A stretch of DNA of 64,000 nt from an uncultured Clostridia bacterium (lineage in GTDB: Bacteria > Bacillota > Clostridia > Christensenellales > UBA1242), in contig CAKVLQ010000003.1 of assembly GCA_934757845.1 (NCBI GenBank), forward strand, positions 43,657-107,656. Reading direction: 5' to 3'. The translations under genes and the position numbers were made by a program. Shown here piece after piece: positions 1 through 50,237 of this stretch (position 1 is the first letter of the stretch; the number at the start of each line of letters is the position of its first letter). The notes below the pieces were generated by a model. It did no database searches, was not told the DNA's origin, and saw only the letters and a program-made list of their open reading frames with translations.

Positions 1-1899
1 AAACAAACTTATGGCGAAAATTTAACAAAACTTAATGGTGTTTCTAATGACAATTTGAATTTTACATATTTTATTGACAACTTTATTGATAAATCAAGCA
101 AGGTTGTTGATATTTCAATAAACCCAAACGCAAATTCCGACACAAAAGATGTTACAAGTTTAATTCACAACATGGCAGAGCCTCATTGCAAACTTCTTGC
201 CATGAACAAAATCTTTTATGAAATTAAAAAGAAATATGGCGTAAGTCAAGCCCAAAAATGGCTTAAAAGTGAATGGATTGGCGAAACTTATCTTCACGAT
301 TTTCCAACTGCAACATTTATTCCTTATTGCTATGCAGTTGACCTTGATGCTTTAAGTGAAAAAGGATTGTTTTTTATTAACAAATTCAAAACTGAACCAG
401 CAAAACATTTGACTACTTTTAATGACCATTGTTTGGAATATATTGGCTGGCTTTCTAACAGGCAATCTGGGGCTGTGGGGCTTCCGTCTTATTTGGTTTA
501 TTCATATTATTTTTGGAAAAACGATGTTGAAAATGGGTTCTATTTGAAAGACCCTGAATATTATCGAAGGCAATGCTTTCAAAAGTTTGTTTATGACTTA
601 AATCAACCATATTTGCGTGTTATTCAAAGTGCTTTCACTAACATAACTATTATGGATAGAAATTATTTGGAAGAGTTGTTTGGTGGCAGGCTTTATCCAA
701 ATGGTGAATGTGTGATTGACAATATTGACGGAATTTTGGAGCATCAAAAAGTGTTTATGGACGTTGTTAAAGAAATTAGGCACAGCATGATGGCAACTTT
801 TCCAGTTATCACTTATTCACTGTTGTTTAAGAACGGCAAGTTTGTTGATGAAGAATTTGCAAAATGGGCTTGCAAAGAAAACATGGAATGGTGTGATGGA
901 AATTTCTATCTTGGAAGTGATGTTACAAGTTTAAGTTCATGTTGCAGGCTTGTTAATAACCTTAATGATGTTCACAAAAAGAAAGACCTTGGATTTATTA
1001 ACTCTATTGGCGGAACAAGTTTAAGCATTGGTTCGGTTAAAGTTAACACAATAAATTTAAGAAGAGTGGCACTTGACAGCAAAGGCGACAAAAACAAATT
1101 TTTTGAACTTTTGAATGACAGGGTAGACACAGTGGTTAAAACTTTGGATATTGTAAGACACATAATAAAAAGAAACATTGAAAAGGGGCTACTTCCAAAT
1201 TATAGTTATGGGTTGTTAAAACTTGAAAATCAATATAACACAATAGGAATAACCGCAATGTTTGAAGCGGTGCGTGAATTTGGTGGGATTGACACTGACG
1301 AATTTGGAAATGTTAGTTATAACGATTTTGGGCTTGAATTTGCAAAAAAAATATTAGATGAAATTAACAAACAAAAAGAAGAATATAATTTTGATTATTC
1401 AATTAATGTTGAAGCAATTCCAGCAGAAAGTGCAAATGTTAAATTAAGAAAAAAAGATGATATGTTTTATCCAAATTGTCATCATGAAAATATTTATTCC
1501 AACCAATGGATTCCACTTCAAGAAAAGTGCAGTATTAATGAAAAAGTTAAACTTGGAGCGATATTAGACAGCAAATGTGGTGGCGGACAAATTTCTCATA
1601 TAAATGTTGAAGGAGATTTTAACAACTTTGAACAGGCGTGGAAAATTTTAAATTATCTTGGCAAAAGCGGAGTTATTTATAGTTGTTTTAACAAAAAAAT
1701 TTCGGTTTGTGAAAGTGAGCACGCATATATTGGCAATGGTTGTTGTCCAAAATGCGGAAAGCCCAAATATGACGAGTTTACAAGAATTGTTGGGTTTTTG
1801 ACGCCGTCAAAATCATATTCAAAAGAACGATTTGAAGAATTTAACAACCGAAAATGGTATAATGTTGGAGAAATTGAAAATGAGAGTGCTAGAGATTAA
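1..1899 (+). CDS. nrdD: anaerobic ribonucleoside-triphosphate reductase (class III RNR), 5' end off window
   Basis: Frame 1 is open from nt 1, so the track start at 55 is an internal TTG. C-terminal Cys cluster CESEH...CCPKCG is followed by a glycyl-radical-type RIVGFL motif. An activase gene follows. Confidence 0.85.
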   Translation, partial: KQTYGENLTKLNGVSNDNLNFTYFIDNFIDKSSKVVDISINPNANSDTKDVTSLIHNMAEPHCKLLAMNKIFYEIKKKYGVSQAQKWLKSEWIGETYLHDFPTATFIPYCYAVDLDALSEKGLFFINKFKTEPAKHLTTFNDHCLEYIGWLSNRQSGAVGLPSYLVYSYYFWKNDVENGFYLKDPEYYRRQCFQKFVYDLNQPYLRVIQSAFTNITIMDRNYLEELFGGRLYPNGECVIDNIDGILEHQKVFMDVVKEIRHSMMATFPVITYSLLFKNGKFVDEEFAKWACKENMEWCDGNFYLGSDVTSLSSCCRLVNNLNDVHKKKDLGFINSIGGTSLSIGSVKVNTINLRRVALDSKGDKNKFFELLNDRVDTVVKTLDIVRHIIKRNIEKGLLPNYSYGLLKLENQYNTIGITAMFEAVREFGGIDTDEFGNVSYNDFGLEFAKKILDEINKQKEEYNFDYSINVEAIPAESANVKLRKKDDMFYPNCHHENIYSNQWIPLQEKCSINEKVKLGAILDSKCGGGQISHINVEGDFNNFEQAWKILNYLGKSGVIYSCFNKKISVCESEHAYIGNGCCPKCGKPKYDEFTRIVGFLTPSKSYSKERFEEFNNRKWYNVGEIENESARD

Positions 1900-2356
1900 A
1901 GATGAAGATTGCATAAACTTTAAAGAGATTTCAATGTTTATTGCTACTCCATTTTGCAGTGGAAAATGCTATAAAGAACTTGGTTTAGATTCTTCAATTT
2001 GTCAAAATGATAAGTTAAGAAATTCACCCATAACCACTATGAATAACGAAACAATTATTAAAAGATATTTGCAAAATCCATTAACAAAAGCAATAGTTTT
2101 TGGTGGATTAGAACCCCTTGACAGTTTTGCTGAACTAATCCAGTTTTTAAAAGAGTTTAGAAAAAATTGTGATGATACTATTGTTATTTACACGGGCTAT
2201 AAAGAAAATGAAATTGAAGACAAAATAAGCCTTCTAAAACAAATTGGAAATGTGATTTTGAAAGTTGGAAGATATATTCCAAATCAAAAAAACATTTTTG
2301 ACCAAAACTTGGGTGTTTATCTTGCAAGTAACAATCAATATTCAATAAAATTGTAG
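1880..2356 (+). CDS. nrdG: NrdG-like anaerobic RNR activating protein (small form)
   Basis: ATG 1880 has a GGAG RBS and overlaps the nrdD stop. GGLEPL motif typical of radical-SAM activases. Cys motif is C-x3-C-x10-C rather than the canonical CxxxCxxC. Confidence 0.6.
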   Translation: MRVLEIKDEDCINFKEISMFIATPFCSGKCYKELGLDSSICQNDKLRNSPITTMNNETIIKRYLQNPLTKAIVFGGLEPLDSFAELIQFLKEFRKNCDDTIVIYTGYKENEIEDKISLLKQIGNVILKVGRYIPNQKNIFDQNLGVYLASNNQYSIKL

Positions 2357-2365
2357 GAGAAAATT

Positions 2366-2878
2366 ATGAGAAAATGTGCAAAATTTGAAAAGGTTAGTTT
2401 AAAACAATTTAGTCAAGATTTTAAAGAGATTTTTCCACTTGATGATGAAAGAATTAAAAAAATTTATGACGAAATTAAACTCCCAAAAAGGGCAACAAAA
2501 TCAAGTGCGGGATATGACTTTTATCTTCCACTTGGCATCACGCTTGAACCCAAACAAACAATAAAAATTCCAACTGGAATAAGATGCTATATGGAAGACG
2601 ATGTGGTTTTAAGTTTATATCCACGAAGTAGCCTTGGATTTAAGTTTAAAATGCAACTTAATAATACTGTTGGAATAATTGACGCCGATTATTATAACGC
2701 CATGAATGAGGGGCACATTCAAATAAAAATAACAAATGATAACAACGAAAACAAAACAATTTGCCTAAAATCGGGCGATGCGTTTGCACAAGGTGTGTTT
2801 ACTGAATTTTTGATAACATTTGATGATGAAACCACTGGGCAAAGAACTGGCGGATTTGGTTCTACTAACAAAAATTAA
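2366..2878 (+). CDS. dut: dUTP diphosphatase (trimeric dUTPase)
   Basis: Motifs SSAGYDF, PRSSLG, GIIDADYY and RTGGFGSTN are present. Confidence 0.85.
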   Translation: MRKCAKFEKVSLKQFSQDFKEIFPLDDERIKKIYDEIKLPKRATKSSAGYDFYLPLGITLEPKQTIKIPTGIRCYMEDDVVLSLYPRSSLGFKFKMQLNNTVGIIDADYYNAMNEGHIQIKITNDNNENKTICLKSGDAFAQGVFTEFLITFDDETTGQRTGGFGSTNKN

Positions 2879-3120
2879 AGTTGAAGATGATTATTAAAAA
2901 CAAAAAAAGTTTTACTTTGTTATGCTAAAATTAACTTTTATTAGATATGAAATATTGTTTAAAATAAAGATTAAAATTTTGTTTTTTGAAAAAATTAAAA
3001 AAACACTTTACATTTGTAATTAAAAGTGATAATATAATCATGTCCGTTGCAAGGTTTGGCGATAAAATACCCTTACGCTATGCTTTGTTATTGGAGAAAT
3101 TTTGAAAGGGGAGAAATAAT

Positions 3121-3375
3121 ATGATTGATAAAAAAGAAATTATGTCTAAATATCAATTAAAAGACGGCGACACTGGTTCAACAGAAGTTCAAATTGCTCT
3201 TTTATCTGCAAGAATCAACCACATTACAGAACATCTTAAATCAAACAAACAAGACAATTCTGCAAAACGTGGTCTATTGATGCTTATCGGAAAAAGAAAT
3301 GGTCTTTTAAAATATTTGGAAAAGAAAGATATTAACAAATATCGTGAACTTAAAAAATCACTAGGAATTAGATAG
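3121..3375 (+). CDS. rpsO: 30S ribosomal protein S15
   Basis: 84 aa. DTGSTEVQIALLS...HLK...D..AKRGLL.LIGKR..LLKYL signature; strong GGGGAG RBS. Confidence 0.9.
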   Translation: MIDKKEIMSKYQLKDGDTGSTEVQIALLSARINHITEHLKSNKQDNSAKRGLLMLIGKRNGLLKYLEKKDINKYRELKKSLGIR

Positions 3376-3397
3376 TGCTTCGGCTCTATCTTTTTTT
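3370..3397 (+). terminator. rho-independent terminator after rpsO
   Basis: AGATAG...CTATCT stem followed by a T7 run. Confidence 0.55.
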
Positions 3398-3458
3398 ATA
3401 TTTTTTTATTAATTGCTGTTTAAAAATTTTAAATAGCATTTTTTATAAATTAAACAAC

Positions 3459-3486
3459 TTGACAAATATATTTTTTGTGATATAAT
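3459..3486 (+). promoter_or_regulatory. sigma-A-type promoter (TTGACA, 16 nt, TGaTATAAT)
   Basis: TTGACA 3459-3464 and extended -10 TGATATAAT 3478-3486. The -10 ends only 6 nt before ATG 3493. Confidence 0.5.
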
Positions 3487-3492
3487 AAAAAT

Positions 3493-3801
3493 ATGATTAT
3501 AAAAATAAATATTTTTTCACCAAGTGATGTTTGCAACCTTTATCTTGATGAAAGCAAAAACTTTGTTGAATATAACGGCATGGAAAAAACAATGGATATT
3601 AAAAATTATGTTCAAAAATTTGTGCAAATTTTTTCTTCTTGGTCTGAAAATTATAACGAGCCACTTGTTTTTGACATGGAAAATTTTAAGGTTGAAGTTG
3701 TTGGAAACAACAAATCAAAACAAATTTACGGTAGTGGCAATTACCCAAAAAACTATCATGAATTTAAAAGTTTAATAGGGGAGATTATCAGTTGTTTTTA
3801 G
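3493..3801 (+). CDS. hypothetical protein (possibly leaderless)
   Basis: 102-aa ORF with no RBS; its start is 7 nt after the -10. Its end overlaps the next gene by 10 nt. Confidence 0.4.
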   Translation: MIIKINIFSPSDVCNLYLDESKNFVEYNGMEKTMDIKNYVQKFVQIFSSWSENYNEPLVFDMENFKVEVVGNNKSKQIYGSGNYPKNYHEFKSLIGEIISCF

Positions 3802-3905
3802 ACGAAATAGAGAAAGACGAAATTGGTTATGTAGAATATTGCAAAAACAAAGTTAAAGAATATTTTGTTAACTTTTTTGATAAAAAATATGAAAAACAAA
3901 TTGAA
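3792..3905 (+). repeat. 114-nt direct repeat, copy 1 (5' end of paralog 1)
   Basis: Identical to 4860-4973 except for one substitution (gaa/gag). Confidence 0.9.
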
Positions 3906-4829
3906 CATAAAATTAACAGAGTTCATTTGATTTTTCTTGATAAATGTGCTTCAAAAATGCCTGCTGAGAACAGTTTCGCTCAAAACAAATATATTTCAAA
4001 GTTTTATAACAAATTATATAAAGTTTTTCAAAGAACTATTTTCAAAGATTATTCAAAATTTGTTTCAAAATTTTGCATAGCGGGAACTTTTCAAAAAATA
4101 GGTTCTGTTGATAATGAAAAAGATTCTGTTGAATATATTATTTATGAATATATAACAAGTGTAACACAATCAACTTTTGTGCACGAATTGTTGCACTGTA
4201 TAAGTGAGCAAGCTTTCCCTCATGAGCACAGAATATATAGAACCAATGAAGATATAGAGCGTGCATGTAAAAGCGGATTAGAAATTAATTTTATAACAAA
4301 GAATAAAAATATAATTATTAAAAACAAACTTTTAAATGAAGTTTTTACCGACTATGTGGCTATAAATATTACAGACCAAATGTGCAAAGATAATCTTGAG
4401 TTGTTTAGCAAAAAAATTGATGATTCAACATATTCTTATTGTTTTGTTTTAATTAAGCCTTTATTTGACAAATATTTTGACGCATTTAAAGATTTCTATT
4501 TGAATGACGACGAAACAAAACTTGATAATTTTTTTGGAAAAGAAAATATTAATGAACTTGATGATATTCTTAACAATTTTTTGGGCTACTCAGAAAGTTT
4601 AGACCGAAAAGGAGTTTTGAACCGTCTAGATTGCAACACTTTTAAGGACGGATTGAATAAAAGAAAAACAACAAATGATAAAGAAATTAATATTGTTTTA
4701 AAAAAATATTATAACAGTTTTGTTCAAATGAAAAATTTGATGGAAAAAATTGATACCCATGTTGAAAAAAATAAAATTGATTGGATAATGCAATTATCGA
4801 AGAATATGATTAATGTTTTTAAAAGATAA
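3792..4829 (+). CDS. HExxHC-motif protein, putative zinc metallopeptidase (paralog 1)
   Basis: TTG start after a GGGGAG RBS. Contains TFVHELLHC. First 38 aa are identical to the next gene. Confidence 0.6.
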   Translation: MFLDEIEKDEIGYVEYCKNKVKEYFVNFFDKKYEKQIEHKINRVHLIFLDKCASKMPAENSFAQNKYISKFYNKLYKVFQRTIFKDYSKFVSKFCIAGTFQKIGSVDNEKDSVEYIIYEYITSVTQSTFVHELLHCISEQAFPHEHRIYRTNEDIERACKSGLEINFITKNKNIIIKNKLLNEVFTDYVAINITDQMCKDNLELFSKKIDDSTYSYCFVLIKPLFDKYFDAFKDFYLNDDETKLDNFFGKENINELDDILNNFLGYSESLDRKGVLNRLDCNTFKDGLNKRKTTNDKEINIVLKKYYNSFVQMKNLMEKIDTHVEKNKIDWIMQLSKNMINVFKR

Positions 4830-4859
4830 AGCGTAAGAAATTTAATTGGAGAAATAAAA

Positions 4860-13524: not shown

Positions 13525-13600
<76 letters not shown>

Positions 13601-13750: not shown

Positions 13751-14719
13751 TTAATTTTTTTCAAAATAAAATCCATTATATAATTTTTTTATTTTTTCTT
13801 TATTTGAAGTCTTATCTATATCTGTATATGTGTCCAAAGTGATTTTTATTGAAGAATGGCCCATCCAATCTTGAACAAATTTAGCATTAGTTCCTAAAGT
13901 AAAGTGATTTGTAGCGAATGTATGTCTTAATTTATATAGCAATGGTTTTACATTTATTTCATTGCAAATGTTAGTAAATTCTTTTTTTATATCTTTTACT
14001 TTTTTTATTTTGTGGTTAATAATATATGGTTTTAAATATATAGCAAATTTATTGCTTATTTCAACAACTCTATATTTAGATTTTTCTGTTTTTGTGCCAT
14101 TTATAACTACGAGATTGTTTTTAAAATCAAAATTGTTATTTTGAGGCAATTCATTTGGTCTGCATCCCGTTAGTAAATAAATATAAATTTCATGTTCAAT
14201 ATTTGAACCTTTTATTGCGTTTAATATTTTTTCTTGTTCTTCATAATTGTAGCAATTATTTTTGCATTTTAATTTTGGTTCTTTAACAATAACTTTGAAA
14301 GGGTTTCTTTCGATAAGTCCTAAGTCGAAAGCTTTTTGAAGAAGAGCATTAAAATAGAGTTGTATTTTTTCTTTCCAGCGACTTTTTTGATAAGTATTTA
14401 AAAATTGTTGTATATTTTCAGGTTTTAGTTCTGTTAATAGGACTTTTCCTAATTTGTTATTGATGTTTTTAATGGTTCTTGAACATTCAGAATATGTCTT
14501 TTGTGAAATAAATGGTTTTTTATAAATTTCTAACCATTCTTCATCCCATGCTTGTAAAGTGTAAATTTTCTTTTTTTCTGTATTTAAAATGTTCTTTTTA
14601 ATTTTTGTATAAATTTTTTGTGCTTCTTTTAACGTTTTAGCATATTTTATAGTTCTTATTCCGTTTAAAGTTTTGCGAATAACATATCTGCCATCTTTCC
14701 TTAAAGTTATTCCTTTCAT
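13751..14719 (-). CDS. int: tyrosine recombinase / phage-type integrase
   Basis: C-terminal LRHTFAT...GHSSIKITLDTYTD (R-H-R-Y box II). AAGGAG RBS before ATG 14719; the track start 14851 lies further upstream. Confidence 0.85.
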   Translation of the reverse strand: MKGITLRKDGRYVIRKTLNGIRTIKYAKTLKEAQKIYTKIKKNILNTEKKKIYTLQAWDEEWLEIYKKPFISQKTYSECSRTIKNINNKLGKVLLTELKPENIQQFLNTYQKSRWKEKIQLYFNALLQKAFDLGLIERNPFKVIVKEPKLKCKNNCYNYEEQEKILNAIKGSNIEHEIYIYLLTGCRPNELPQNNNFDFKNNLVVINGTKTEKSKYRVVEISNKFAIYLKPYIINHKIKKVKDIKKEFTNICNEINVKPLLYKLRHTFATNHFTLGTNAKFVQDWMGHSSIKITLDTYTDIDKTSNKEKIKKLYNGFYFEKN

Positions 14720-14989
14720 GTTAATATCTCCTTGTATTAATTTAGGATTAACTTCAGATTTGATATCATTTTGACAGTTTATTAAACTTTCACACAAACT
14801 TTCAACATGGCCAAGATTGTAATATAATTGGCTAATGAAAGCAGTGAACATTGTTTTAGAGTTTTCATCTAAATTGTAATTATTTGAAAAATAGTCCTTT
14901 AGTGTATTAAAATTATTAATTAACGAACCATAGTCTGTTTAAATTTTTTTTATATATTCATTTGTGTAAATCATAATTTAAACTTCCTT

Positions 14990-23056: not shown

Positions 23057-24367
23057 ATGAGCAAAGTAGGAAAAACAATTTTAGGCACAACTCTTGCCAT
23101 ATTACTTGGCGGTGGCGGTGCTTATACGGGTTATGTCGCTATTCAAAAAACTAAACTAGAAAATGATAACAAAAATTTAACTGAAATCGTTGCAGTAAGA
23201 GATAAGGAAAAAGAAGACTTAACAAATAGGTTAACAATATCACTTTCAAATCAAAAACAAACTAGCGGATTAATAACAGGAATTTTTATTGCCGCAATTG
23301 CGAAAGATGTTGCTTCAACTGGTGATGTTCTCACAAATGAAGAATATCAAATCACCGAGAACGAATTTTATATGGTTGATGGTGACGAGGTATTTGCTTT
23401 TCCAATAACCGACATTGGTAATAACCAATTTGAAGTGAGATATGAAAATACACTTATGTTTACGCTAACGCCTCTTTATGACGAGAATTGTTATTGGATG
23501 CAAACAAGCGAAAATGTTATGCCTGCTAATGTGAGGATGTTGCTAGTAAAACAAACAGGTCCTGCTGATATGGTTCATGATGCTGCATTAAAACAATTTG
23601 AAAAAGACAGATTGGAATTAAACTCTTTGCGTGCTCAAATAACCACATTGACACAGGAAAAACAAGACCTACAAGAGCAATTAAGAATAAAAACCGAAGA
23701 ATATAACGAACAATTAGAAAAAGCAAATTCATGCGCAAGTGAAAATCAAACACTAATTGAACAAATCAATCAAAAACAAACAGAGATTGATGCACTTAAC
23801 ACACAAATAACAAACTTGCAAGAACAAATAACACAGTTGAAAGCCCAACTAGAAAGCGGAAAAACGGAAGAACCAACAACATTGTCAGCAGGGCTATATG
23901 AAACAGGGACTACAACACTAACAAAGTCATGGGAGCAATTAATTGCTGACGGAGATATATCAACCGCAGACGGACATTTGCAAGTTACAAATAAAAACCT
24001 TGCAGGCGACTTATTTTGCGAAAGTGTTGATGGTTTAACTTCTTTGAATAGTGCTTTTGAAGATTGTGAAAAATTAACTTTAATAGATTTGTCAAACCTT
24101 GATACGTCTAATGTTACAACAATGGAATGCTTGTTTTTCGGTTGCAATACATTAAGAACAATAAAATTAGGGCGATTTGATATTTCAAAAGTTATCGTGA
24201 GTGCTTCTGGTTTGATGTATTATGGTAATGCATTTTCTTGTAGTGTTTCAGATATATTTTATGCAGGAACAAAAGAAGAGTGGCAAGCAAAAAACTTTTC
24301 AGATGATGCTCAACTTCAACTAGGCGTAACCATTCATTGCACCGATGGCGATTTAGTTACGGAATAA
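23057..24367 (+). CDS. TM-anchored coiled-coil protein with C-terminal BspA-type LRR (26-residue surface repeat)
   Basis: N-terminal TM and a Q/E-rich coiled coil. Contains LTSLNSAFEDCEKLTLIDLSNLDTSNVTTMECLFFGC. Confidence 0.6.
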   Translation: MSKVGKTILGTTLAILLGGGGAYTGYVAIQKTKLENDNKNLTEIVAVRDKEKEDLTNRLTISLSNQKQTSGLITGIFIAAIAKDVASTGDVLTNEEYQITENEFYMVDGDEVFAFPITDIGNNQFEVRYENTLMFTLTPLYDENCYWMQTSENVMPANVRMLLVKQTGPADMVHDAALKQFEKDRLELNSLRAQITTLTQEKQDLQEQLRIKTEEYNEQLEKANSCASENQTLIEQINQKQTEIDALNTQITNLQEQITQLKAQLESGKTEEPTTLSAGLYETGTTTLTKSWEQLIADGDISTADGHLQVTNKNLAGDLFCESVDGLTSLNSAFEDCEKLTLIDLSNLDTSNVTTMECLFFGCNTLRTIKLGRFDISKVIVSASGLMYYGNAFSCSVSDIFYAGTKEEWQAKNFSDDAQLQLGVTIHCTDGDLVTE

Positions 24368-24381
24368 TTTTTATAAAATAA

Positions 24382-24404
24382 AAGAAGTAATATTTACTTC
24401 TTTT
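24382..24404 (+). terminator. rho-independent terminator
   Basis: AAGAAGTAA-tat-TTACTTCTT stem plus Ts. Confidence 0.6.
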
Positions 24405-24504
24405 GTGAACTTTTAGTTTAAAAGGTAAAACTATTAGGTTTTTTTTGGAAATTTTATTATTTTGCGGATAAAAATTTCATTTTGATGACTTCCTTCCTAA
24501 TAAT

Positions 24505-24532
24505 CACAGTTCAAGTCTGTGAAAGTTCACCA
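24505..24532 (+). other. orphan tRNA 3' fragment (T-arm, acceptor 3' strand, ACCA)
   Basis: CACAG-TTCAAGT-CTGTG then AAAGTTC-A-CCA. No D-arm or anticodon arm lies upstream. Differs from tRNA-Phe. Confidence 0.5.
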
Positions 24533-24608
24533 ATGTCTTACAGTGCGCAATGTAAGATTAAAAAGTTATAGTTCTTCTAAAAACTAAATTTAATTAAAGG
24601 AGAAAATT

Positions 24609-24896
24609 ATGGCGAAAGGACAGAGAGCTTATTTTAATAAACAAACAATGGGTCATCCAAAAACTACGAAAAATGGCAAGAAATTCACACTTTTGAATCC
24701 TCATGAAAAAGGCTGTAAAGCAGCTGTTGAATTGCGAACAGGTAGAAATGTCTATACTGGTGAATTTTTAAACGAAAGACAAAGAGCGTATCGTAGTGGT
24801 TATCTTGCTGCTCAAAATGACAGTGCAAGATGTTATAATGCAAAGAATAAGAAAAATGCAAATGGTTTTACTTATTCTGATGTTGAGGAGGTTTAA
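24609..24896 (+). CDS. basic hypothetical protein
   Basis: AGGAG RBS; lysine/arginine-rich, 95 aa. Confidence 0.5.
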   Translation: MAKGQRAYFNKQTMGHPKTTKNGKKFTLLNPHEKGCKAAVELRTGRNVYTGEFLNERQRAYRSGYLAAQNDSARCYNAKNKKNANGFTYSDVEEV

Positions 24897-24898
24897 TT

Positions 24899-25093
24899 TT
24901 GAATTTGACAAAAAAACAAATTGAAATTATACAGCGATATACTCCGGAAGAATTAAAGGGCAAACAAATTCGTTTATATGCAACATTGGGGTCTTTTCGA
25001 CCATCTATGGCAAATTGGTCGTATATTGTTGGTTATGTGTTGTATAAAGGCGTTTATGTTTTGGTTGTAACATGTTTCGGAGAAATACTTTAA
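24899..25093 (+). CDS. hypothetical protein with hydrophobic C-terminus
   Basis: TTG start after GGAGG. Confidence 0.35.
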   Translation: MNLTKKQIEIIQRYTPEELKGKQIRLYATLGSFRPSMANWSYIVGYVLYKGVYVLVVTCFGEIL

Positions 25094-25186
25094 AAAGCAA
25101 TTAAAAAAGTGTAAGACTAAACTACGGTTTAGCAATGTTAAATTACTTTAATATTTAATAATTTAAATTATATTTAGGAGATAATT

Positions 25187-25504
25187 ATGAAAGGAATTAA
25201 AAAAATAGAATTAGTAGATAAAAAAAGTTCAAAAGGTAAAGAATATTCTGTTATTGAGGTAACGATGAGTAATGATAAATCTTTTGATTTATTCTTGGAT
25301 TCTGCTACAAAAGATTTAATTGATGTGGTTGGAAAAGAAGATGTAAATTTAAATTATGTTGAAAAAGAAAGTAAAGAAGGCAAAAAATTTAATGCTATTG
25401 AACTTAAGTTGAATAGTGATGATAATTACACAAAACTTTATTTTATTGATAAAGCGTATGAATTAATTATTAAAAAATTAAGTGAAAAAGTTGCTATAAA
25501 ATAA
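25187..25504 (+). CDS. hypothetical protein with internal two-fold repeat
   Basis: KKSSKGKEYSVIEVTM... and KESKEGKKFNAIELKL... repeats; AGGAG RBS. Confidence 0.5.
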   Translation: MKGIKKIELVDKKSSKGKEYSVIEVTMSNDKSFDLFLDSATKDLIDVVGKEDVNLNYVEKESKEGKKFNAIELKLNSDDNYTKLYFIDKAYELIIKKLSEKVAIK

Positions 25505-25508
25505 TGAT

Positions 25509-25581
25509 AAATAACGAAAAACGAGGCATATTTTGCCTTGTTTTCACTAACTAGGCAAGTATGTTAGTGCTGATGAGTTTT
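25509..25581 (+). ncRNA. hammerhead ribozyme motif, type II topology, copy 1
   Basis: C25515-GAA, stem III 25519-28/25534-43, H17 U25544, stem I 25545-51/25563-69 (7 bp perfect), CUGAUGA 25570-76 and G25577. Stem II is AU-rich and weak. Confidence 0.65.
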
Positions 25582-25592
25582 CTTGCGTTCCA

Positions 25593-25656
25593 ATCGAAAC
25601 TAGGCTATGAAAATGGCCTAGTCTATTAAATTTGACTAATTTAATACTGATGAGAT
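25593..25656 (+). ncRNA. hammerhead ribozyme motif, type II topology, copy 2
   Basis: C25595-GAA, stem III 25599-606/25615-22, GUC with C25623, stem I 25624-32/25638-46 (9 bp perfect), CUGAUGA 25647-53 and G25654. Stem II has only 3-4 bp. Confidence 0.65.
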
Positions 25657-25679
25657 AAGTCAAAAAAAAAGGAGGCTAA

Positions 25680-26000
25680 ATGGAATACCAAAATCGTTCT
25701 GTTGGGGATAAAATACGATATTATAGTTCGTTATCTAAAAAGGGCTCAAGGGATAAGAACGGAAAGTTGTTAAGTGATTTTAAACGTGGAGAATGCCTAG
25801 GAAAATCGTTAATGCTTAGTTATTGCGCAAGAAATATAAAAAAGGTTAAACAGCGAATTCAAAAAGAATTTTTTGCGGAATTGAAAAAATGTAAGCCAAA
25901 TTTGAATGAGAGAAGATATACAGATGCGGATTTAAATGCGCTTTTTGATAATTTGAAAGAAGTTGATATTTTTACTAATTCAATGGATGATATAGTTTGA
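25680..26000 (+). CDS. hypothetical protein
   Basis: GGAGG RBS; overlaps the next gene by 4 nt. Confidence 0.5.
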   Translation: MEYQNRSVGDKIRYYSSLSKKGSRDKNGKLLSDFKRGECLGKSLMLSYCARNIKKVKQRIQKEFFAELKKCKPNLNERRYTDADLNALFDNLKEVDIFTNSMDDIV

Positions 26001-26815
26001 TAACTGTTATTTCAGCGCTTCCAGGTTTTGGTAAAACCTTGTTATTTTCGTATCTAATGGCACAAAAAACTTGCATAGAAGGTTATGATTTATATCGCAA
26101 TAGTTGTAAGTTGATAGAAAAATATAATAATAATGGGTTTAAATTTAGTTATCCAAAGCAAAAACATGTTACATATTTTAATGGACATGCTCGTATTAGC
26201 GTTATGGGTAGACCAGTTAAAATTCCTTATGTATTAAACCCTTGGTATTTGGGACTTCCAACAAAAGAAAGTGAAGTCGATTTAGTTCTTCCAGGTTCTG
26301 TATTGTTTATAGATGAGGCTCAAAGATATTATAATTCAAGAATGTCTTATTATTTCCCCGATTATGTATCTAGATTTTATGAAATGCATAGGCATTATAG
26401 ATTAACAATTTATTTGATTGCTCAAAGAGCAGGGCTTATTGATAAAAATATAAGAAGTATTGCACAAGAATTTATTTATATTGATAGGCTTGAAAAAGAA
26501 GAAGATTCTCTTGGGAATTTAATTCAAGCAAAATGGTATATACATAGATTTAATTGTTATAGTGATTTAGAAAAATATGAAGAAGGTAATAAGGAATTAG
26601 GCACGGAAGATATAATTGTTTGTAATGAGAATTTGTATAAGTTTTTTGATACACATTTCTTTGAATTTTTATATCTTAATGGAAATCAGGATTTTTCGCA
26701 AGAATGGTTAAGACCATACAGATTAATGCCTGATATATGTGAAAAATTAAAAGAAGTTTGGTCAGCAACTCCACCACCAACTTTTTTTGGCGATAAAAGG
26801 GTTGCAGAAGCATAA
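25997..26815 (+). CDS. Zot-like / filamentous-phage pI-like P-loop ATPase
   Basis: Walker A at the extreme N-terminus (MITVISALPGFGKT) and Walker B VLFIDEAQRYY. No TM segment seen. Confidence 0.5.
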   Translation: MITVISALPGFGKTLLFSYLMAQKTCIEGYDLYRNSCKLIEKYNNNGFKFSYPKQKHVTYFNGHARISVMGRPVKIPYVLNPWYLGLPTKESEVDLVLPGSVLFIDEAQRYYNSRMSYYFPDYVSRFYEMHRHYRLTIYLIAQRAGLIDKNIRSIAQEFIYIDRLEKEEDSLGNLIQAKWYIHRFNCYSDLEKYEEGNKELGTEDIIVCNENLYKFFDTHFFEFLYLNGNQDFSQEWLRPYRLMPDICEKLKEVWSATPPPTFFGDKRVAEA

Positions 26816-26829
26816 AAAGGGAGAATATT

Positions 26830-27438
26830 ATGGGTAAAGAAAAAGAAGTTGTTACAATTAAAAAAGTAAAGAAAAATAAGAGAAATAAGACTAAAAAATA
26901 TAGCATTATAAATGTTTTAGACGTTTTGCAAGAGCGATATTTTGGCTTATATGATACTTTATCTCAACATACAGAAGGTTGTTTGTCTGGTGATATGTAT
27001 GGCAAGATGGATGCAATGATGACTGACGATTATAATAATTCTATTAACAATTTAGAGTTTTTAAGTAAAAAAGGAATGAAATATCTTAAAAAGAAAGACT
27101 GTAAAGAACGTAGTAAAATTTTTTGGTATAAATTTCGCAGGTTTTTTGGGTGCAAAATTAATGATGAAATAGAGCAATTAATTTTAAAACGAGAAAAATT
27201 TAATTATGAAATGGCTAAATTATTTGAAGACCCTATTTCGTCAAGTATAAGAAAGCAAATCGAAGAGCCTGAACTTATAGAAGAACCGATAGATGAAGAG
27301 CCTGACTATGTTACGGACTCTGAAGATTTAATAGCGGGTCAAAAAGCGGAGCGGATAATTCAACCAGAAATAGTAGAACAAGAACAATTAGAAGCTCAAA
27401 AACAAAACTCAATAGAGTATAAAGCAGATAATAATTAA
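26830..27438 (+). CDS. hypothetical protein, basic N-terminus and acidic C-terminus
   Basis: GGGAG RBS. Confidence 0.5.
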   Translation: MGKEKEVVTIKKVKKNKRNKTKKYSIINVLDVLQERYFGLYDTLSQHTEGCLSGDMYGKMDAMMTDDYNNSINNLEFLSKKGMKYLKKKDCKERSKIFWYKFRRFFGCKINDEIEQLILKREKFNYEMAKLFEDPISSSIRKQIEEPELIEEPIDEEPDYVTDSEDLIAGQKAERIIQPEIVEQEQLEAQKQNSIEYKADNN

Positions 27439-27453
27439 TTTTTAGCTTACCTG

Positions 27454-27521
27454 TGAGTATTTTTAACCAAAGGTTATGAGTATGGAGAAAAAAAATGAGT
27501 ATTATTGCAAAGCATGAGTAT
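27454..27521 (+). repeat. four direct (A/G)TGAGTAT repeats
   Basis: TGAGTAT at 27454, 27477, 27496 and 27515, with 19-23 nt spacing, upstream of the origin hairpin. Confidence 0.5.
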
Positions 27522-27567: not shown

Positions 27568-27607
27568 CGCAGTTGCTAAAGGTTAGTATTACCCTTTAGC
27601 AACTGCG
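27568..27607 (+). promoter_or_regulatory. rolling-circle origin stem-loop with TAGTATTAC nonanucleotide
   Basis: Perfect 15-bp stem CGCAGTTGCTAAAGG / CCTTTAGCAACTGCG. The 10-nt loop TTAGTATTAC has TAGTATTAC at 27584-27592. Confidence 0.75.
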
Positions 27608-27709
27608 TAACATCGTAACATAACATTTTGAAACCCTTATAAATAAAGGGATTGATAAGTTTTTAACTGCGTAACATATTGGCGTTTTGACTGTGTAACT
27701 GCGTAACAT
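27601..27709 (+). repeat. three perfect 13-nt iterons AACTGCGTAACAT
   Basis: Copies at 27601-13 (overlapping the right arm of the stem), 27665-77 and 27697-709. An extra CGTAACAT half-copy lies at 27614-21. Confidence 0.7.
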
Positions 27710-27742: not shown

Positions 27743-28684
27743 ATGTCAGAAACAATGAAAAGACGGTGGTGTCTCACTATGAATAATGAGCCACGGTCTT
27801 TGGAAGAACTTAGCGAGTATATAAAAAATTTAGAGCACTTTAAGTATGCAATCTTTCAAAGAGAAGTTGGAGAGCAGAAAGGAACTCCGCATATACAGGC
27901 TTTTATAATATTTTCAGTTGGAAAACGATTTTCTACTATGAAAAACTATTTTCCAGAAGCACATATTGAAGAAGCAAAGGGAACGAATGTTCAGGCTAGA
28001 GATTATTGTTCAAAGAAGGAAACTCGAGTTGAAGGTCCTGTTGAAATTGGGGCATTTGCAGAAGAAAGAGCAAGAACCGATATAAGTAATTTTATGGAGT
28101 TAGTAAAATTAAACACATCTAACGAGGAACTTGAAAAGTTATATCCTAAACTTTATTTAAACAATATTAATAAAATTGAAAGTATTAAAGAACGTGCAAG
28201 ATATGATGAATTTCGGGTTAAGTTGCGAGATATAAATGTTACTTATATTTATGGCAAGCCTGGTATAGGTAAAACGAGTTATATAATAAGTAAGCACCCG
28301 TTAGGAACTTATTATGATGTGCCGTTTTATGGAAATGGAAATTTTGATAATTATAATGGCGAAGATATTATTGTATTTGATGAGTTTACTGGAAAAATAG
28401 ATATTACTTTAATGAATAAACTTCTTGATAGGTATCCAATGCAGTTACCTTCACGGTATTCAAACAAAATTGCTTGTTATACAAAAGTTTATATTGTTTC
28501 AAATTTGCCAATTAGTGAACTTTATAAAAATGATAGAGAAAATGGATTGTTTTATGCATTTTTAAGAAGAATACATACGATTATTAGAATAGATGAAAAA
28601 GGTTTTCACTATGAAAAAAGAACAGTGAATAATATGGCTATTGAATTAATAGAAGAAGGTGGTGAAAATTATGAAAAAAAATAA
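27743..28684 (+). CDS. rep: HUH endonuclease plus SF3 helicase replication initiator (CRESS-DNA-virus / pCRESS-plasmid type Rep)
   Basis: Motif I WCLTMNN, motif II PHIQAFI, motif III DYCSKK, Walker A GKPGIGKT, Walker B IIVFDEF and motif C YIVSN. 313 aa. Confidence 0.8.
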   Translation: MSETMKRRWCLTMNNEPRSLEELSEYIKNLEHFKYAIFQREVGEQKGTPHIQAFIIFSVGKRFSTMKNYFPEAHIEEAKGTNVQARDYCSKKETRVEGPVEIGAFAEERARTDISNFMELVKLNTSNEELEKLYPKLYLNNINKIESIKERARYDEFRVKLRDINVTYIYGKPGIGKTSYIISKHPLGTYYDVPFYGNGNFDNYNGEDIIVFDEFTGKIDITLMNKLLDRYPMQLPSRYSNKIACYTKVYIVSNLPISELYKNDRENGLFYAFLRRIHTIIRIDEKGFHYEKRTVNNMAIELIEEGGENYEKK

Positions 28685-32445: not shown

Positions 32446-32491
32446 ACTGAAAATCCTCGTGTCGGTGGTTCGATTCCGCCTCGAGGCACCA
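32446..32491 (+). repeat. attR core (orphan copy of the tRNA-Phe 3' part)
   Basis: 46/46 identity with 13555-13600. No tRNA 5' half lies upstream. Confidence 0.9.
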
Positions 32492-46643: not shown

Positions 46644-49600
46644 ATGATTATTAGAGATATATTTGAAAAACCTATTGATAGACCACTTGAAGGTGTTATT
46701 AAAGTTGGTAAAAACACGGAAGAAGCAGTTTTTGAAGAAGTAAATGAATACGTTGTTACAAAGGAATTAAGAGGCTATTTTTCAACATTCTTTGAGAAAT
46801 ATGCTGACGCTTTGAAAGCAAGAACCAATGATGTTGGTGTTTGGATTTCAGGTTTCTTTGGAAGTGGTAAATCTCACTTCTTGAAGATTTTGTCTTATAT
46901 TTTGGAAAACAGAGAAATTAGAGGTAAAAGAGCATATCAATATTTTGAAGATAAGATTGACGACCCAATGATTGTTGCCAATATGAAAGCTGCTTCTGAC
47001 TATAACAGTGATGTTTTACTTTTCAACATTGATAGTGTATCTGACGCTGACGCTAGAAGTAATAAAGAAGGCCTTGTTAAGGTATTCAATAAGATGTTCA
47101 ACAAAATGCAAGGCTTCTCTGAAAGTATGCCTTGGCTTGCCGAACTTGAAAGACAAATGGTTAAAAATGGCACTTATGAAGAATTTAAAAAGGAATTCCA
47201 AAACATAAGTGGCGATACTTGGGAAAATAGGAGAGATGACTTCTATTTTGAAGAAGATAACATTGTTGAAGCTCTTGCAAAAACAAACAATATTTCAGTT
47301 GAGGCTGCTAGAAATACATATCAAAGAGCAGAAAACAACTTTACTTTAAGTATTGACCAATTTGCTATCAAAGTAAGAGAATACATTGAAAATAAGGGCA
47401 GAAATCATAATGTTATCTTTATGATTGATGAAATGGGACAATACATTGGCAACGACTCTGGTTTAATGTTAAATCTTCAAACTATCGTTGAAAGACTTGG
47501 TGTTGAATGTGGTGGTCGTGCTTGGGTGTTTGTAACAAGCCAAGAAGCCATTGATACAGTTTCTAAAAATGTAAACAATAAAGACTTTTCTAAAATTCAA
47601 GGTAGATTTAGCATTAGAATTTCTCTTTCTTCTTCAAATGCTGATGAAGTTATCAAAAAGAGAATACTTGAAAAAACTGACCTTGCGAATGAAAGTTTGA
47701 AAGAACTTTATGGTAGAAAGAGTGCAGTTATCAAAAACCTTGTTTCATTTAGCGCTAACACACCAGATATTAAAGCATTTAAGGCAGATAAAGATTTCAC
47801 TGAAATTTATCCTTTCTTGCCATATCAATTTAACTTATTGCAATCTGCTTACAACAGCATAAGAAATCGTGGTGCGAGTGGTAAACACCTTTCAGAAGGT
47901 GAACGTTCATTACTTTCTGCATTTAAAGAAAGTGCCATGAGCAACGAAAACAAAGAGATTGGAGCAATCGTTCCATTTAGTGATTTCTATAACTCAATCG
48001 AAACATTCCTTGACCACGAAATTAGAAATGTAATGACAAGGGCAGAGAATAATGAAAACCTTGTAATGCCACAAGATTTGAGCCTTTTAAAGACATTATT
48101 CTTAATCAAAGACCTTGATGATAAAATGCCAGCAAATGTAGAGAACTTAACTACATTATCTTTAACAGGCATTGATGATGATAAAATTGCACTAAGAAAA
48201 CAAATCGAAGAAAGTATCAAGAGATTGTATTCTCAAAACTTAATTCAAAGAGATGGTGATAACTATATCTTCTTGACTAATGATGAACAAGATGTAAATC
48301 GTGAGATTTCTTCTATCAATTTGGACCCAAGCGAAATCATTAAGTTTATTGGTGATGAAATCTTCAATAGTGTTTGTGATATGAAATACAAATACAACAA
48401 TAATGTTTCGCCATTTGCATTTAACCAAATTATTGATGAAAATCCAAGAGGACAACAGGTTAGTGAACTTGGCCTTGCTATTTACACACCTTACTATGGA
48501 AACATTAGTGATGAAGATATTAAGTTAAAGACACAAATGAACCATTGGGTTGTAATCAGAATGGCAGACAATTCTTTGCTTACTGATGAAATCGAAGGTT
48601 ATTTGAAACTTGAAAAGTATATCAGAACAAGAAATACAAGAACATCATCTTCAAATATTCAGAAGATTATGACTTTGAAGGCTGATGAATTGAGAAGAAA
48701 GCAAGAAAGAGCCCTTAATTTAATCCTTGAAGGAATTGAAAAGGCTGACATCTTTGCTAATACATCTAAACTTGAAATTAAACAAAAAACACCAAAAGAA
48801 AGAATAAATGAAGCATTTAGAATTTTGGTTGAAAGCACATACACAAAACTTAACTACATTACTAAATATTACGATAAATCAAGCGATTTGCTTGCACTTG
48901 TATCAAGCACAAGACAAATGAGCATTGATGGCATTGTGCCAAACAATTTGGCTATTGCAGAGATGAAAAAATATGTTGAAATGCAATATGAAAGACGTAT
49001 GCCTATTACTTTGCGTAGTTTGAATGATAGGTTCCAAAAAATACCTTATGGTTGGAATGAACTTGATATTGCAGGCGTTGTAATATCTCTTATGAAAACT
49101 GATGACATCAAACTTGAACTTGCTGGCCAACCAATCGTAATTAGTGATAGTAAACTTGTAGATTACTTAACAAAGAGAGATTACAAAGAAAGAGTTGCAG
49201 TTAAATTAAAGATAAGAACAAGTGATGAAATCGTTGATAGCATTAAGAGAATATTCAAAAATGTCTTTGTTCAATCTGTTGGTTATACCAATGATGAAGA
49301 ACTTAAACAGATGATTACAAGAACTTGTGAATATGAAAAAGACCATTTGCAAGCTTTCTTGGGATTATATCCACAAAGTGGTTATTACAGAACTTATGAT
49401 TATCAATTAACATACATCAACGATATTCCTTATCATAACACATTCAAATATCCGGGCTATGACCTTGTAAATAAGAGTTATGAGTTATTTACTCAACTTG
49501 GCAAAATCAATGACGCTAGCACATTATTTAGCAAGTTTATTGATAGCGAAAACGAGTTGATGGAATACAAGAAGAACTTTGATGTTATCAAGAACTTCTT

Positions 49601-50237
49601 TGAAAACCAAAGAGCAATTTTTGAAAGAGGTTGCAATAGAATTGACATCTATGAACAAAACAAATCATTTATCCTTAATGATAATGCAAAGGGTATTGTT
49701 GATGAACTTCAAAGCATTGTAACACTTGAAAGTCCATATTCTGAAATACACCGTATTCCAGACCTTTGCCAAAGATTTGATAACATCTTAATCCATGTAT
49801 TGGAAAAGGAATCTGAACCAATTTGCAAGGAAATTGACGAAATGCAAAAAGATGTAATTGACGCCTATAATAGATACGAAATTACAATTCAAGCATTAGA
49901 TGTTCAATTCAAAATGCTTAAAGACAAAGCAACACAATCACAAATTGTTTCAACTATCAGAAATGTTAGGGAAGAAGCAATTAGACTTCGTGATGATTTG
50001 ATTAACAGAGCAACTGAAATTTACAAAGAAAGAATTAAAGAAGAACAAAAGAAAAACCCAAATGTTAAGATTGAAGTTAAGAAAATTAAGAAAAACATTT
50101 CATTGTCAGTAACTGAAATTCTTGGCAAATCAAATATTAAGTTAAGTTCTGAAAGCGATATTGACAACTTTGTAAATGACCTTAAATCAAAACTTAAAGA
50201 AAGACTTAATGATGATATTGTTATCAATATTAAGTAG
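46644..50237 (+). CDS. brxC: BREX P-loop ATPase BrxC/PglY
   Basis: 1197 aa with Walker A GFFGSGKSHFLK near residue 70 and Walker B IFMIDEMG. Confidence 0.8.
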   Translation: MIIRDIFEKPIDRPLEGVIKVGKNTEEAVFEEVNEYVVTKELRGYFSTFFEKYADALKARTNDVGVWISGFFGSGKSHFLKILSYILENREIRGKRAYQYFEDKIDDPMIVANMKAASDYNSDVLLFNIDSVSDADARSNKEGLVKVFNKMFNKMQGFSESMPWLAELERQMVKNGTYEEFKKEFQNISGDTWENRRDDFYFEEDNIVEALAKTNNISVEAARNTYQRAENNFTLSIDQFAIKVREYIENKGRNHNVIFMIDEMGQYIGNDSGLMLNLQTIVERLGVECGGRAWVFVTSQEAIDTVSKNVNNKDFSKIQGRFSIRISLSSSNADEVIKKRILEKTDLANESLKELYGRKSAVIKNLVSFSANTPDIKAFKADKDFTEIYPFLPYQFNLLQSAYNSIRNRGASGKHLSEGERSLLSAFKESAMSNENKEIGAIVPFSDFYNSIETFLDHEIRNVMTRAENNENLVMPQDLSLLKTLFLIKDLDDKMPANVENLTTLSLTGIDDDKIALRKQIEESIKRLYSQNLIQRDGDNYIFLTNDEQDVNREISSINLDPSEIIKFIGDEIFNSVCDMKYKYNNNVSPFAFNQIIDENPRGQQVSELGLAIYTPYYGNISDEDIKLKTQMNHWVVIRMADNSLLTDEIEGYLKLEKYIRTRNTRTSSSNIQKIMTLKADELRRKQERALNLILEGIEKADIFANTSKLEIKQKTPKERINEAFRILVESTYTKLNYITKYYDKSSDLLALVSSTRQMSIDGIVPNNLAIAEMKKYVEMQYERRMPITLRSLNDRFQKIPYGWNELDIAGVVISLMKTDDIKLELAGQPIVISDSKLVDYLTKRDYKERVAVKLKIRTSDEIVDSIKRIFKNVFVQSVGYTNDEELKQMITRTCEYEKDHLQAFLGLYPQSGYYRTYDYQLTYINDIPYHNTFKYPGYDLVNKSYELFTQLGKINDASTLFSKFIDSENELMEYKKNFDVIKNFFENQRAIFERGCNRIDIYEQNKSFILNDNAKGIVDELQSIVTLESPYSEIHRIPDLCQRFDNILIHVLEKESEPICKEIDEMQKDVIDAYNRYEITIQALDVQFKMLKDKATQSQIVSTIRNVREEAIRLRDDLINRATEIYKERIKEEQKKNPNVKIEVKKIKKNISLSVTEILGKSNIKLSSESDIDNFVNDLKSKLKERLNDDIVINIK

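Follow-up and report, generated by a model that had tools for sequence, protein, structure and literature searches.

Perreault et al. (2011, PLoS Comput Biol, PMC3088659) described type II hammerhead ribozymes in which loop I forms a pseudoknot with the 3' tail; Eckert et al. (2023, PMC10085705) refer to them as 'type GSC'. In the published consensus, the pseudoknot joins loop I by at least four pairs to the nucleotides immediately 3' of stem II, and its disruption abolishes activity; stem II itself can be as short as 1-2 bp (PMC3088659). Clusters of several such hammerheads on one strand have been found in prophage operons of Clostridium scindens, Agrobacterium tumefaciens (ardA) and Azorhizobium caulinodans, where they were proposed to cut the polycistronic unit into gene-length mRNAs; arrangements of this kind were shown to cleave themselves both in vitro and in E. 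coli (PMC3088659). Here we analysed a 175-nt spacer located in a 64,000-nt stretch of DNA from an uncultured Clostridia bacterium (the whole stretch is called the window in the following). The spacer lies in an integrated element that encodes a Zot-like ATPase and a circovirus-type Rep. It very probably encodes two independent type II hammerheads, HH#1 and HH#2, each stabilised by a pseudoknot, which would cut the operon transcript after U25544 and after C25623.

Both copies have the block order of the published type II ribozymes, which is GAA, stem III hairpin, U-H, stem I hairpin and CUGANGA, with stem II open (G-S-C). They also share the short open stem II (3-5 bp here, 2-5 bp in the published descriptor), the pseudoknot of loop I with the nucleotides right after stem II and the prophage-like location in an operon. 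Unlike the published examples, the two copies are strongly AU-rich, with approximately 30% GC in their stems, and HH#1 has an invariant stem I of its own, U at position 17 and a U.U in stem II, where 25511-15 and 25577-81 form the pairs G-C, U-A, U-A, U.U and U-A. The 15.1-16.1 pair of HH#1 is A25519-U25543. The CUGAUGA boxes of HH#1 and HH#2 are 77 nt apart, and the 19 nt from core 1 to GAA 2 contain no open reading frame (ORF). A preliminary description of the window, made from the sequence alone, had listed the elements of both copies, and every coordinate was confirmed, including the length of the spacer and the distance between the CUGAUGA boxes. It regarded stem II as the weak point of the motif. 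This concern does not hold, since a short stem II is normal for the type II class and is backed by the pseudoknot between loop I and the 3' tail, which had been overlooked. Readings of the tandem as type I (C1-G2-S2) or as type III (S1-C1-G2) were rejected, because the stems they need are unable to pair.

The published RNAMotif descriptor for type II hammerheads (Perreault 2011, Text S1) reads h5(2-5) GAA h5(3-12, starting with A) loop h3(ending in U) H h5(3-12) loop h3 CUGANGA h3. Its structural part is satisfied by both copies, with length bonuses of -9 and -11 (-7 or lower is needed). The sequence CTGATGA is present at 17 sites in the window; the 15 sites beyond the two copies all lie within ORFs of at least 150 aa, which agrees with the earlier observation that no other CUGAUGA is intergenic. 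Chance matches were counted on both strands with a descriptor consisting of GAA, an A...U hairpin, H, a hairpin and CUGAUGA, in which stem II was ignored. Dinucleotide-preserving shuffles (n=600) yielded 0.155 weak matches to this descriptor per 64 kb, and a stem III of at least 8 bp together with a stem I of at least 7 bp was found in 0 of the 600. The summed stem length reached at most 15 bp in the shuffles versus 17 and 19 bp in the real copies, and the only strong matches in the real window are HH#1 and HH#2. An 8-nt direct repeat, AACUAGGC (AACTAGGC), is found at 25549-56 (stem I and loop I of HH#1) and at 25598-25605 (5' strand of stem III of HH#2). A long-range switch helix formed by this repeat was ruled out, as the repeat is not conserved in two related elements (L002 and L041); it is probably accidental.

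Searches for homologues of the Zot and the 105-aa proteins, the latter encoded directly upstream of the spacer, led to approximately 50 contigs, mostly from gut metagenomes. Wherever a contig has a gene of the 105-aa family and reaches through the spacer, both hammerheads are present. These contigs represent eight sequence lineages, across which the Zot and the 105-aa proteins are 53-84% identical. Covariation was counted in a MAFFT alignment of 10 units (loci) with 44 proposed pairs. With the proposed structure 95.7% of the pair cells are paired, versus 33-42% when the 3' partners are slid, and compensatory double changes occur at 17 of the 44 pairs, versus 1-4 in the slid controls. None of 500 shuffles matched the observed covariation score. 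RNAalifold, run unguided, recovered all four hairpins, that is stems I and III of both copies.

Broken down by stem, double changes were found in HH#1 at 7/8 counted pairs of stem III and at 2/5 pairs of stem II, and in HH#2 at 2/8 pairs of stem III, at 3/8 counted pairs of stem I (A-U/G-C/G-U; A-U/U-A; A-U/G-C/U-A) and at 1/3 pairs of stem II. The sequence of stem III of HH#1 is thus almost entirely exchanged from lineage to lineage. The third pair of stem II of HH#2 is A-U in two sequences, G-C in four and G-U in four, and the 10.1-11.1 pair of HH#1 is C-G in seven sequences, U-A in two and C.A in one. The base of stem III of HH#2, ACUAGG/CCUAGU, is invariant. Stem I of HH#1 (7 bp) is invariant across the lineages and hence uninformative for covariation. 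Thus, the comparison of stems I and III in homologous loci, which had been suggested as a check, revealed double changes in three of these four stems.

The core varies very little. The A15.1-U16.1 pair is kept in both copies in all 10 sequences, and position H17 is U or C in HH#1 and C or A in HH#2, never G. A single core substitution was found in all lineages: HH#1 of the L050-52 clade has CUGAAGA (U7 to A), and this position is written N in the published consensus CUGANGA (PMC3088659). Large insertions fall solely in stem III loops, with the core and the stem bases retained. They comprise a 60-nt extended AU-rich hairpin in stem III of HH#2 in the L002 clade (L002/L037-L039) and approximately 125 nt in the stem III loop of HH#1 in L045/L046; L045 has a C.U mismatch at 15.2-16.2. 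The upstream 105-aa gene ends, in three lineages, with a stop codon located in the loop or the 3' strand of stem III of HH#1. Because this codon lies upstream of the HH#1 cleavage site, cleavage would never truncate the ORF.

The first pseudoknot (PK1), GCAAG/CUUGC, is predicted in 10/10 sequences with energies of -6.5 to -9.7 kcal/mol; a substitution of C by U in L041 results in a G.U pair, and additional flanking pairs are formed. The second pseudoknot (PK2), UGACU/AGUCA, is predicted in 8/10 sequences. It covaries, with one pair being G-C, G-U or A-U and another A-U or G-C.

Relatives of the two copies outside this element family were sought with a pattern made from invariant parts of HH#2, TCGAAACTAGG..CCTAGT..CTGATGAG. 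The pattern retrieved 50 metagenome and 14 viral contigs with 55 unique type II hammerheads. Members of this external subfamily (UCGAAACUAGG...CCUAGUC) have a stem II of 3-4 bp (49/55), C at position H17 (53/55) and a GA(C/U)A tail that is followed by a covarying pseudoknot. HH#2 has in common with the 55 external hammerheads the stem II AGUC/GAC or AAUC/GAU, the ACUAGG/CCUAGU base, the GUC triplet and the GA(C/U)A tail with the pseudoknot, and in three external loci (L073, L094 and L103) the UGACU/AGUCA pseudoknot is identical to that of HH#2. A model built from 44 external members scores HH#2 with 60.1 bits (E 8e-15, model positions 1-70), a score that is largely built in, since the 25 pattern nucleotides used for fetching came from HH#2; stem II, stem I, H17, the tail and the pseudoknot are independent of the fetch pattern. 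HH#1 is the second-best match to this model in the window (16.6 bits, E ~0.03) and lies outside the UCGAAACUAGG...CCUAGUC subfamily. Its invariant stem I was met in this element family only. A DNA pattern for it, GCAAG..GTTAGTGCTGATGA, gave only chance matches in unrelated taxa, without type II structure, in viral and genome collections, and the linker pattern CTGATGANTTTT..CTTGC..TCGAAAC had no match in viral and metagenome collections. Likewise, no match was obtained by blastn of 24600-27500 against a phage collection or with the Zot protein against viral contigs.

The external family is located at most 45 nt upstream of a Shine-Dalgarno (SD) sequence and start codon in 59% of cases, versus 13.5% at random positions, and the placement of the SD sequence 16 nt past CUGAUGAG in HH#2 is usual for this subfamily. 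Most of its members stand alone. Type II clusters on one strand were found in 13 external loci, in which the smallest gap is 155 nt (L088) and most gaps are approximately 200-900 nt. According to our own descriptor, up to about 10 type II hammerheads are located within 4.5 kb in one of these loci (L106, IMGVR_UViG_3300047297_000136, minus strand ~480-4850), and dense one-strand arrays with a spacing of 200-900 nt are likewise found in L084, L068, L094, L103 and L057. Two external loci carry sequences resembling other self-cleaving ribozymes beside a type II hammerhead: an HDV-like ribozyme (RF02682) in L073 at 870-942, with 38.7 bits under the gathering score of 44, and a RAGATH-1 hammerhead (RF03152) in L077 at 709-802, with 35 bits under the gathering score of 56.3. 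Altogether, covariation, the restriction of the one core substitution to the tolerated U7 position, an H17 that is never G, and the external family support the initial proposal that type II hammerheads stand here in tandem and would release a 79-nt RNA on cutting the polycistronic mRNA.

If the + strand operon of the element is transcribed through the spacer, as we infer, each ribozyme would fold and cleave itself co-transcriptionally, HH#1 after U25544 and HH#2 after C25623. The upstream mRNA would contain the 105-aa gene and end in the stem III hairpin of HH#1 with a 2',3'-cyclic phosphate. The downstream mRNA would contain the 106-aa gene, the Zot gene, the 202-aa gene and possibly the Rep gene; it would begin with a 5'-OH at the stem I hairpin of HH#2, 46 nt before the AGGAGG SD sequence. 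The middle product would be a 79-nt RNA (25545-25623, + strand) with 5'-OH and 2',3'-cyclic phosphate ends. The two halves of the operon would thereby become separate molecules with hairpin-protected ends, and their stability and translation would be uncoupled. We favour such a role in mRNA processing because the external family sits near SD sequences, clusters on one strand are common, and cleavage of such clusters has been observed both in vitro and in E. coli.

In the Ff filamentous phages (M13/f1) polycistronic mRNAs are processed by RNase E, a host nuclease. The proposed cut of the operon here resembles this processing in being post-transcriptional and in giving promoter-proximal and distal cistrons differing mRNA lifetimes. 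Unlike in Ff, where a host protein nuclease makes the cuts, they would be made here by the RNA itself. In the known prophage clusters the ribozymes flank genes or gene blocks, whereas HH#1 and HH#2 stand directly next to each other without an intervening ORF and are predicted to excise a small non-coding RNA. The host element differs as well, being an integrative element of the single-stranded DNA (ssDNA) type with Zot and a circovirus-type Rep.

Several points weigh against two active hammerheads with a role in mRNA processing. One type II hammerhead would already provide both mRNAs with hairpins, and the need for two is unaccounted for. The cleavage triplet of HH#1 in the window is poor (UUU), and its stem II is interrupted by the U.U mismatch. 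PK2 is weak or absent in L011 and L053, and when pseudoknots are disallowed the minimum free energy fold of HH#2 favours the pseudoknot helix over stem I. The G/C-balance filter of the published RNAMotif descriptor (cut-off 13), as emulated here with uncertain indexing semantics, scores HH#2 with 13 and HH#1 with 15, and would thus pass HH#2 and reject HH#1; this 'too many wobbles' filter is a false-positive screen and not a biochemical definition. Finally, the Rfam hammerhead models RF02276, RF00008, RF00163, RF02275 and RF02277 gave no match to either copy at the gathering threshold, and they were silent at E<=10 for the whole spacer as well as for each copy alone (83-90-nt slices).

The Rfam result has to be read together with the sensitivity of the models. 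Topology and core of the two copies are those of RF02276 (Hammerhead_II); they differ from this family in having no reportable score and approximately 30% GC versus a GC-rich consensus with a fixed tail. The gathering score of RF02276 (37 bits) is not reached, and the copies are therefore filed under the ribozyme class and not under the Rfam family. Phage PaP3, used as a positive control for the Rfam models, gave no match; its hammerhead core is a variant, which made this control uninformative. When RF02276 was run on 20 external type II loci, E<=1 was obtained for 3/20 (27.5-36.4 bits) and none reached 37 bits. Close GC-rich relatives too remained under the gathering score, and the window copies, with their approximately 30% GC, fall lower still. 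Because RF02276 under-scores the external subfamily in this 20-locus control, the lack of Rfam matches reflects model sensitivity, and most members of the UCGAAACUAGG...CCUAGUC subfamily are probably overlooked by standard annotation. Background-level scores had been named in the preliminary description as a result that would speak against the ribozymes. Such scores were indeed obtained; they are not decisive, since the models proved insensitive to the subfamily.

Conservation is distributed unevenly between the predicted products. The excised fragment is predicted to be 74-79 nt long in the other lineages, except for the L002 clade, where it would reach 136 nt, and the helices within it are 94% identical with 87% invariant columns, versus 69% and 34% for the helices retained on the mRNAs. 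Stem I of HH#1 with its loop is invariant in 23/25 columns, more than base pairing alone explains; a similarly unexplained invariant stem I has been reported in another hammerhead family (Eckert et al., 2023, PMC10085705). For stem III of HH#2, invariance is a feature shared throughout the external subfamily. We regard it as rather unlikely that the pair exists to make a 75-79-nt RNA with ligatable ends that contains the invariant stem I hairpin of HH#1 and its pseudoknot. Such an RNA could regulate, bind a protein or, once ligated, form a tiny circle that bears a ribozyme, and it might double as an ssDNA signal in the packaged strand. It is quite unlikely that the excised 79-mer is itself the functional unit, either as a small RNA or as a nicked chimeric hammerhead that is ligated to a circle by itself or by an RtcB-type ligase. 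The chimera would be composed of the stem I hairpin and the CUGAUGA of HH#1, the linker as a stem II hairpin with its loop kissing loop I, and the GAAA and the stem III hairpin of HH#2. Such a geometry is formally possible, with the ends C25545 and C25623 meeting at the cleavage site and GCAAG/CUUGC turning into a contact between loops I and II, and the better conservation of the helices in the fragment would fit as well. However, the chimeric stem II has at best the pairs G-C, U.U, U-A/U.G and U-A. Its first pair, between 10.1 of HH#1 and 11.1 of HH#2, is A.C in three lineages, and in two of these 10.1 pairs instead with 11.1 of HH#1, with which it covaries. A stem II hairpin formed by the 19-nt linker, offered earlier as an alternative, is thus unsupported. 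Furthermore, the subfamily that shares the invariant stem III of HH#2 consists mostly of members that stand alone, and a search of the window revealed no antisense target for the excised RNA above chance. Circular or spliced products were raised as a possibility by Perreault et al., who looked for them and found none (PMC3088659).

Explanations without catalysis have less in their favour than the two pseudoknot-stabilised hammerheads. That the hairpins act on the packaged + strand DNA, as an inovirus-like packaging signal or minus-strand origin, with the cores being incidental or relics, is very unlikely. As the element encodes a rolling-circle Rep and an assembly ATPase of the Zot type, a structured ssDNA signal must exist somewhere, and the invariance of stem I of HH#1 and its loop would suit such a signal. 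But a DNA hairpin gives no reason to conserve 13 core nucleotides, an H17 that is never G, the A15.1-U16.1 pair and covarying pseudoknots, and the sequence family of HH#2 occurs in 55 unrelated contigs, typically just 5' of the ribosome-binding site. The origin of the Rep is moreover located elsewhere, at a TAGTATTAC hairpin with iteron-like repeats (27568-27620). The invariant stem I hairpin of HH#1 was ruled out as Rep origin on account of this TAGTATTAC origin at 27568-27607, and the CRESS-type nonanucleotide NANTATTAC was not found in the spacer hairpins. Ordinary intrinsic terminators, attenuators or mRNA stabilisers are a highly improbable reading of the hairpins. In its favour, UUUU follows stem III of HH#1 in the window, and a hairpin resembling a terminator is found at this boundary in one relative that lacks the ribozymes; in other lineages, however, stem III of HH#1 is followed by UC/CC and not by a U-tract, a terminator scan found no + strand terminator-like site within 24300-26300, and this reading offers no explanation for the conservation of the GAA and CUGAUGA boxes. 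For chance matches there is the AU-rich composition and nothing more, and they are refuted by the shuffles, the conservation in eight lineages and the covariation; their probability is negligible.

Table 1. Features of the hammerhead spacer and of the surrounding element (positions in the window).
Feature	Position	Strand	Remarks
HH#1 stem II, 5' strand	25511-25515	+	AUAAC; C25515 is position 11.1
HH#1 core G12 A13 A14 (GAA)	25516-25518	+	invariant in 10/10 aligned loci
HH#1 stem III hairpin	25519-28/25534-43, loop 25529-33	+	10 bp, one G.U
HH#1 H17 = U	25544	+	predicted cut between 25544 and 25545
HH#1 stem I hairpin	25545-51/25563-69, loop 25552-62	+	7 bp, perfect; 11-nt loop
HH#1 core C3-A9 (CUGAUGA)	25570-25576	+	
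HH#1 stem II, 3' strand	25577-81	+	G25577 is position 10.1
Pseudoknot 1 (PK1)	25555-59 with 25582-86	+	loop I GCAAG with CUUGC, directly 3' of the stem II strand
HH#2 stem II, 5' strand	25593-95	+	AUC, including C25595
HH#2 core G12 A13 A14 (GAA)	25596-98	+	
HH#2 stem III hairpin	25599-25608/25613-22	+	8 bp, can extend to 10 bp; loop GAAA
HH#2 H17 = C	25623	+	GUC triplet; predicted cut between 25623 and 25624
HH#2 stem I hairpin	25624-32/25638-46, loop 25633-37	+	9 bp, perfect; loop UGACU
HH#2 core C3-A9 (CUGAUGA)	25647-25653	+	invariant in all aligned loci
HH#2 stem II, 3' strand	25654-56	+	GAU, followed by A25657
Pseudoknot 2 (PK2)	25633-37 with 25658-62	+	loop I UGACU with AGUCA, 1 nt past stem II
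Spacer with both hammerheads	25505-25679	+	175 nt, flanked by the 105-aa and 106-aa ORFs
Upstream cistron	25187-25504	+	105 aa; no family match; AlphaFold model pLDDT 84
Shine-Dalgarno sequence of the downstream cistron	25670-75	+	AGGAGG; starts 16 nt past CUGAUGAG of HH#2
Downstream cistron	25680-26000	+	106 aa; overlaps the Zot-like gene
Zot-like ATPase gene	25997-26815	+	PF05707
CRESS-DNA-type origin	27568-27620		just upstream of the Viral_Rep gene; hairpin 27568-27607, then repeats
Circovirus-type Rep	27743-28684	+	Viral_Rep PF02407 and SF3 helicase domain
46-nt direct repeat bounding the element	13555-13600 and 32446-32491		3' half of the tRNA at 13525-13597
Tyrosine integrase	13751-14851	-	left end of the island

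On the + strand, the genes are arranged in the order DUF285 protein, ORFs of 95, 64 and 105 aa, spacer, 106-aa ORF, Zot-like ATPase, 202-aa ORF and Rep. The protein encoded by the 105-aa ORF has no Pfam or PHROG match, and a PDB fold search with its confident AlphaFold model gave no match with E<0.1. The Zot/Rep module and the hammerheads are contained in an integrated element of approximately 19 kb (~18.9 kb); as a tRNA-integrated island it exceeds a typical inovirus in size. The related contig L041 carries a tRNA gene at 70-156 (87 nt, 42.3 bits), approximately 1 kb upstream of the 105-aa gene, which hints that relatives also integrate beside tRNA genes. The host DNA has approximately 29% GC and codes for a PBP5-type carboxypeptidase. 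Downstream of the prophage, BrxC domains (BREX ATP-binding protein) were found in a 1197-aa ORF (46644-50237), adjoined by large ORFs up to approximately 60 kb; this single scanned ORF suggests a BREX anti-phage system.

The origin hairpin upstream of the Rep gene has a 15-bp stem, CGCAGTTGCTAAAGG / CCTTTAGCAACTGCG, and a loop, TTAGTATTAC, that includes the nonanucleotide TAGTATTAC. Iteron-like direct repeats, ACTGCGTAACAT, are located 3' of the hairpin at approximately 27602, 27668 and 27699. The hairpin scores 39.4 bits with RF03070 (ssNA-helicase RNA), for which the gathering score is 41.5, and homologous hairpins are present in L002 (2169-2217), L041 (3380-3428) and L050 (3913-3944).

Related Zot modules are paired either with Rep_1 (PF01446; L003/L004/L008-L010) or with Viral_Rep (PF02407; the window, L011, L041, L045 and L051), and the Viral_Rep region of L045, L046 and L051 is called as two ORFs of 110 aa and 319 aa. 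Among the few elements compared, a hammerhead pair is restricted to those with a Rep of the Viral_Rep type and an upstream gene of the 105-aa family. These combinations point to module exchange among Zot elements. Relatives with another upstream gene and a Rep_1-type Rep have a spacer of approximately 84 nt in which CUGAUGA is absent, and in at least one ribozyme-free clade this gene boundary is marked by a terminator-like hairpin, which suggests that the boundary is a regulated point.

A limited search of the literature gave no report of hammerheads in inoviruses, inovirus-like elements or elements with a circovirus-type Rep. Type II hammerheads are already established, as are their pseudoknots and, since 2011, clusters of prophage hammerheads (PMC3088659), and HH#1 and HH#2 are further members. 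The novelty that had been attributed to the pair is therefore confined to two aspects, the back-to-back spacing, which is predicted to excise a small non-coding RNA, and the integrated ssDNA-like host element with Zot and a circovirus-type Rep. As this AU-rich family escapes the Rfam type II model, which also under-scores the large related subfamily, routine annotation probably undercounts the hammerheads of bacteria and phages. The pair represents a clean natural case of two ribozymes that are predicted to excise a defined small RNA with ligatable ends, and it could serve to test whether bacterial hammerhead pairs ever yield circular or functional small RNAs. Activity of the two ribozymes would mean that a filamentous-phage-like ssDNA element, residing in a gut Firmicute, processes its own operon mRNA by RNA catalysts.

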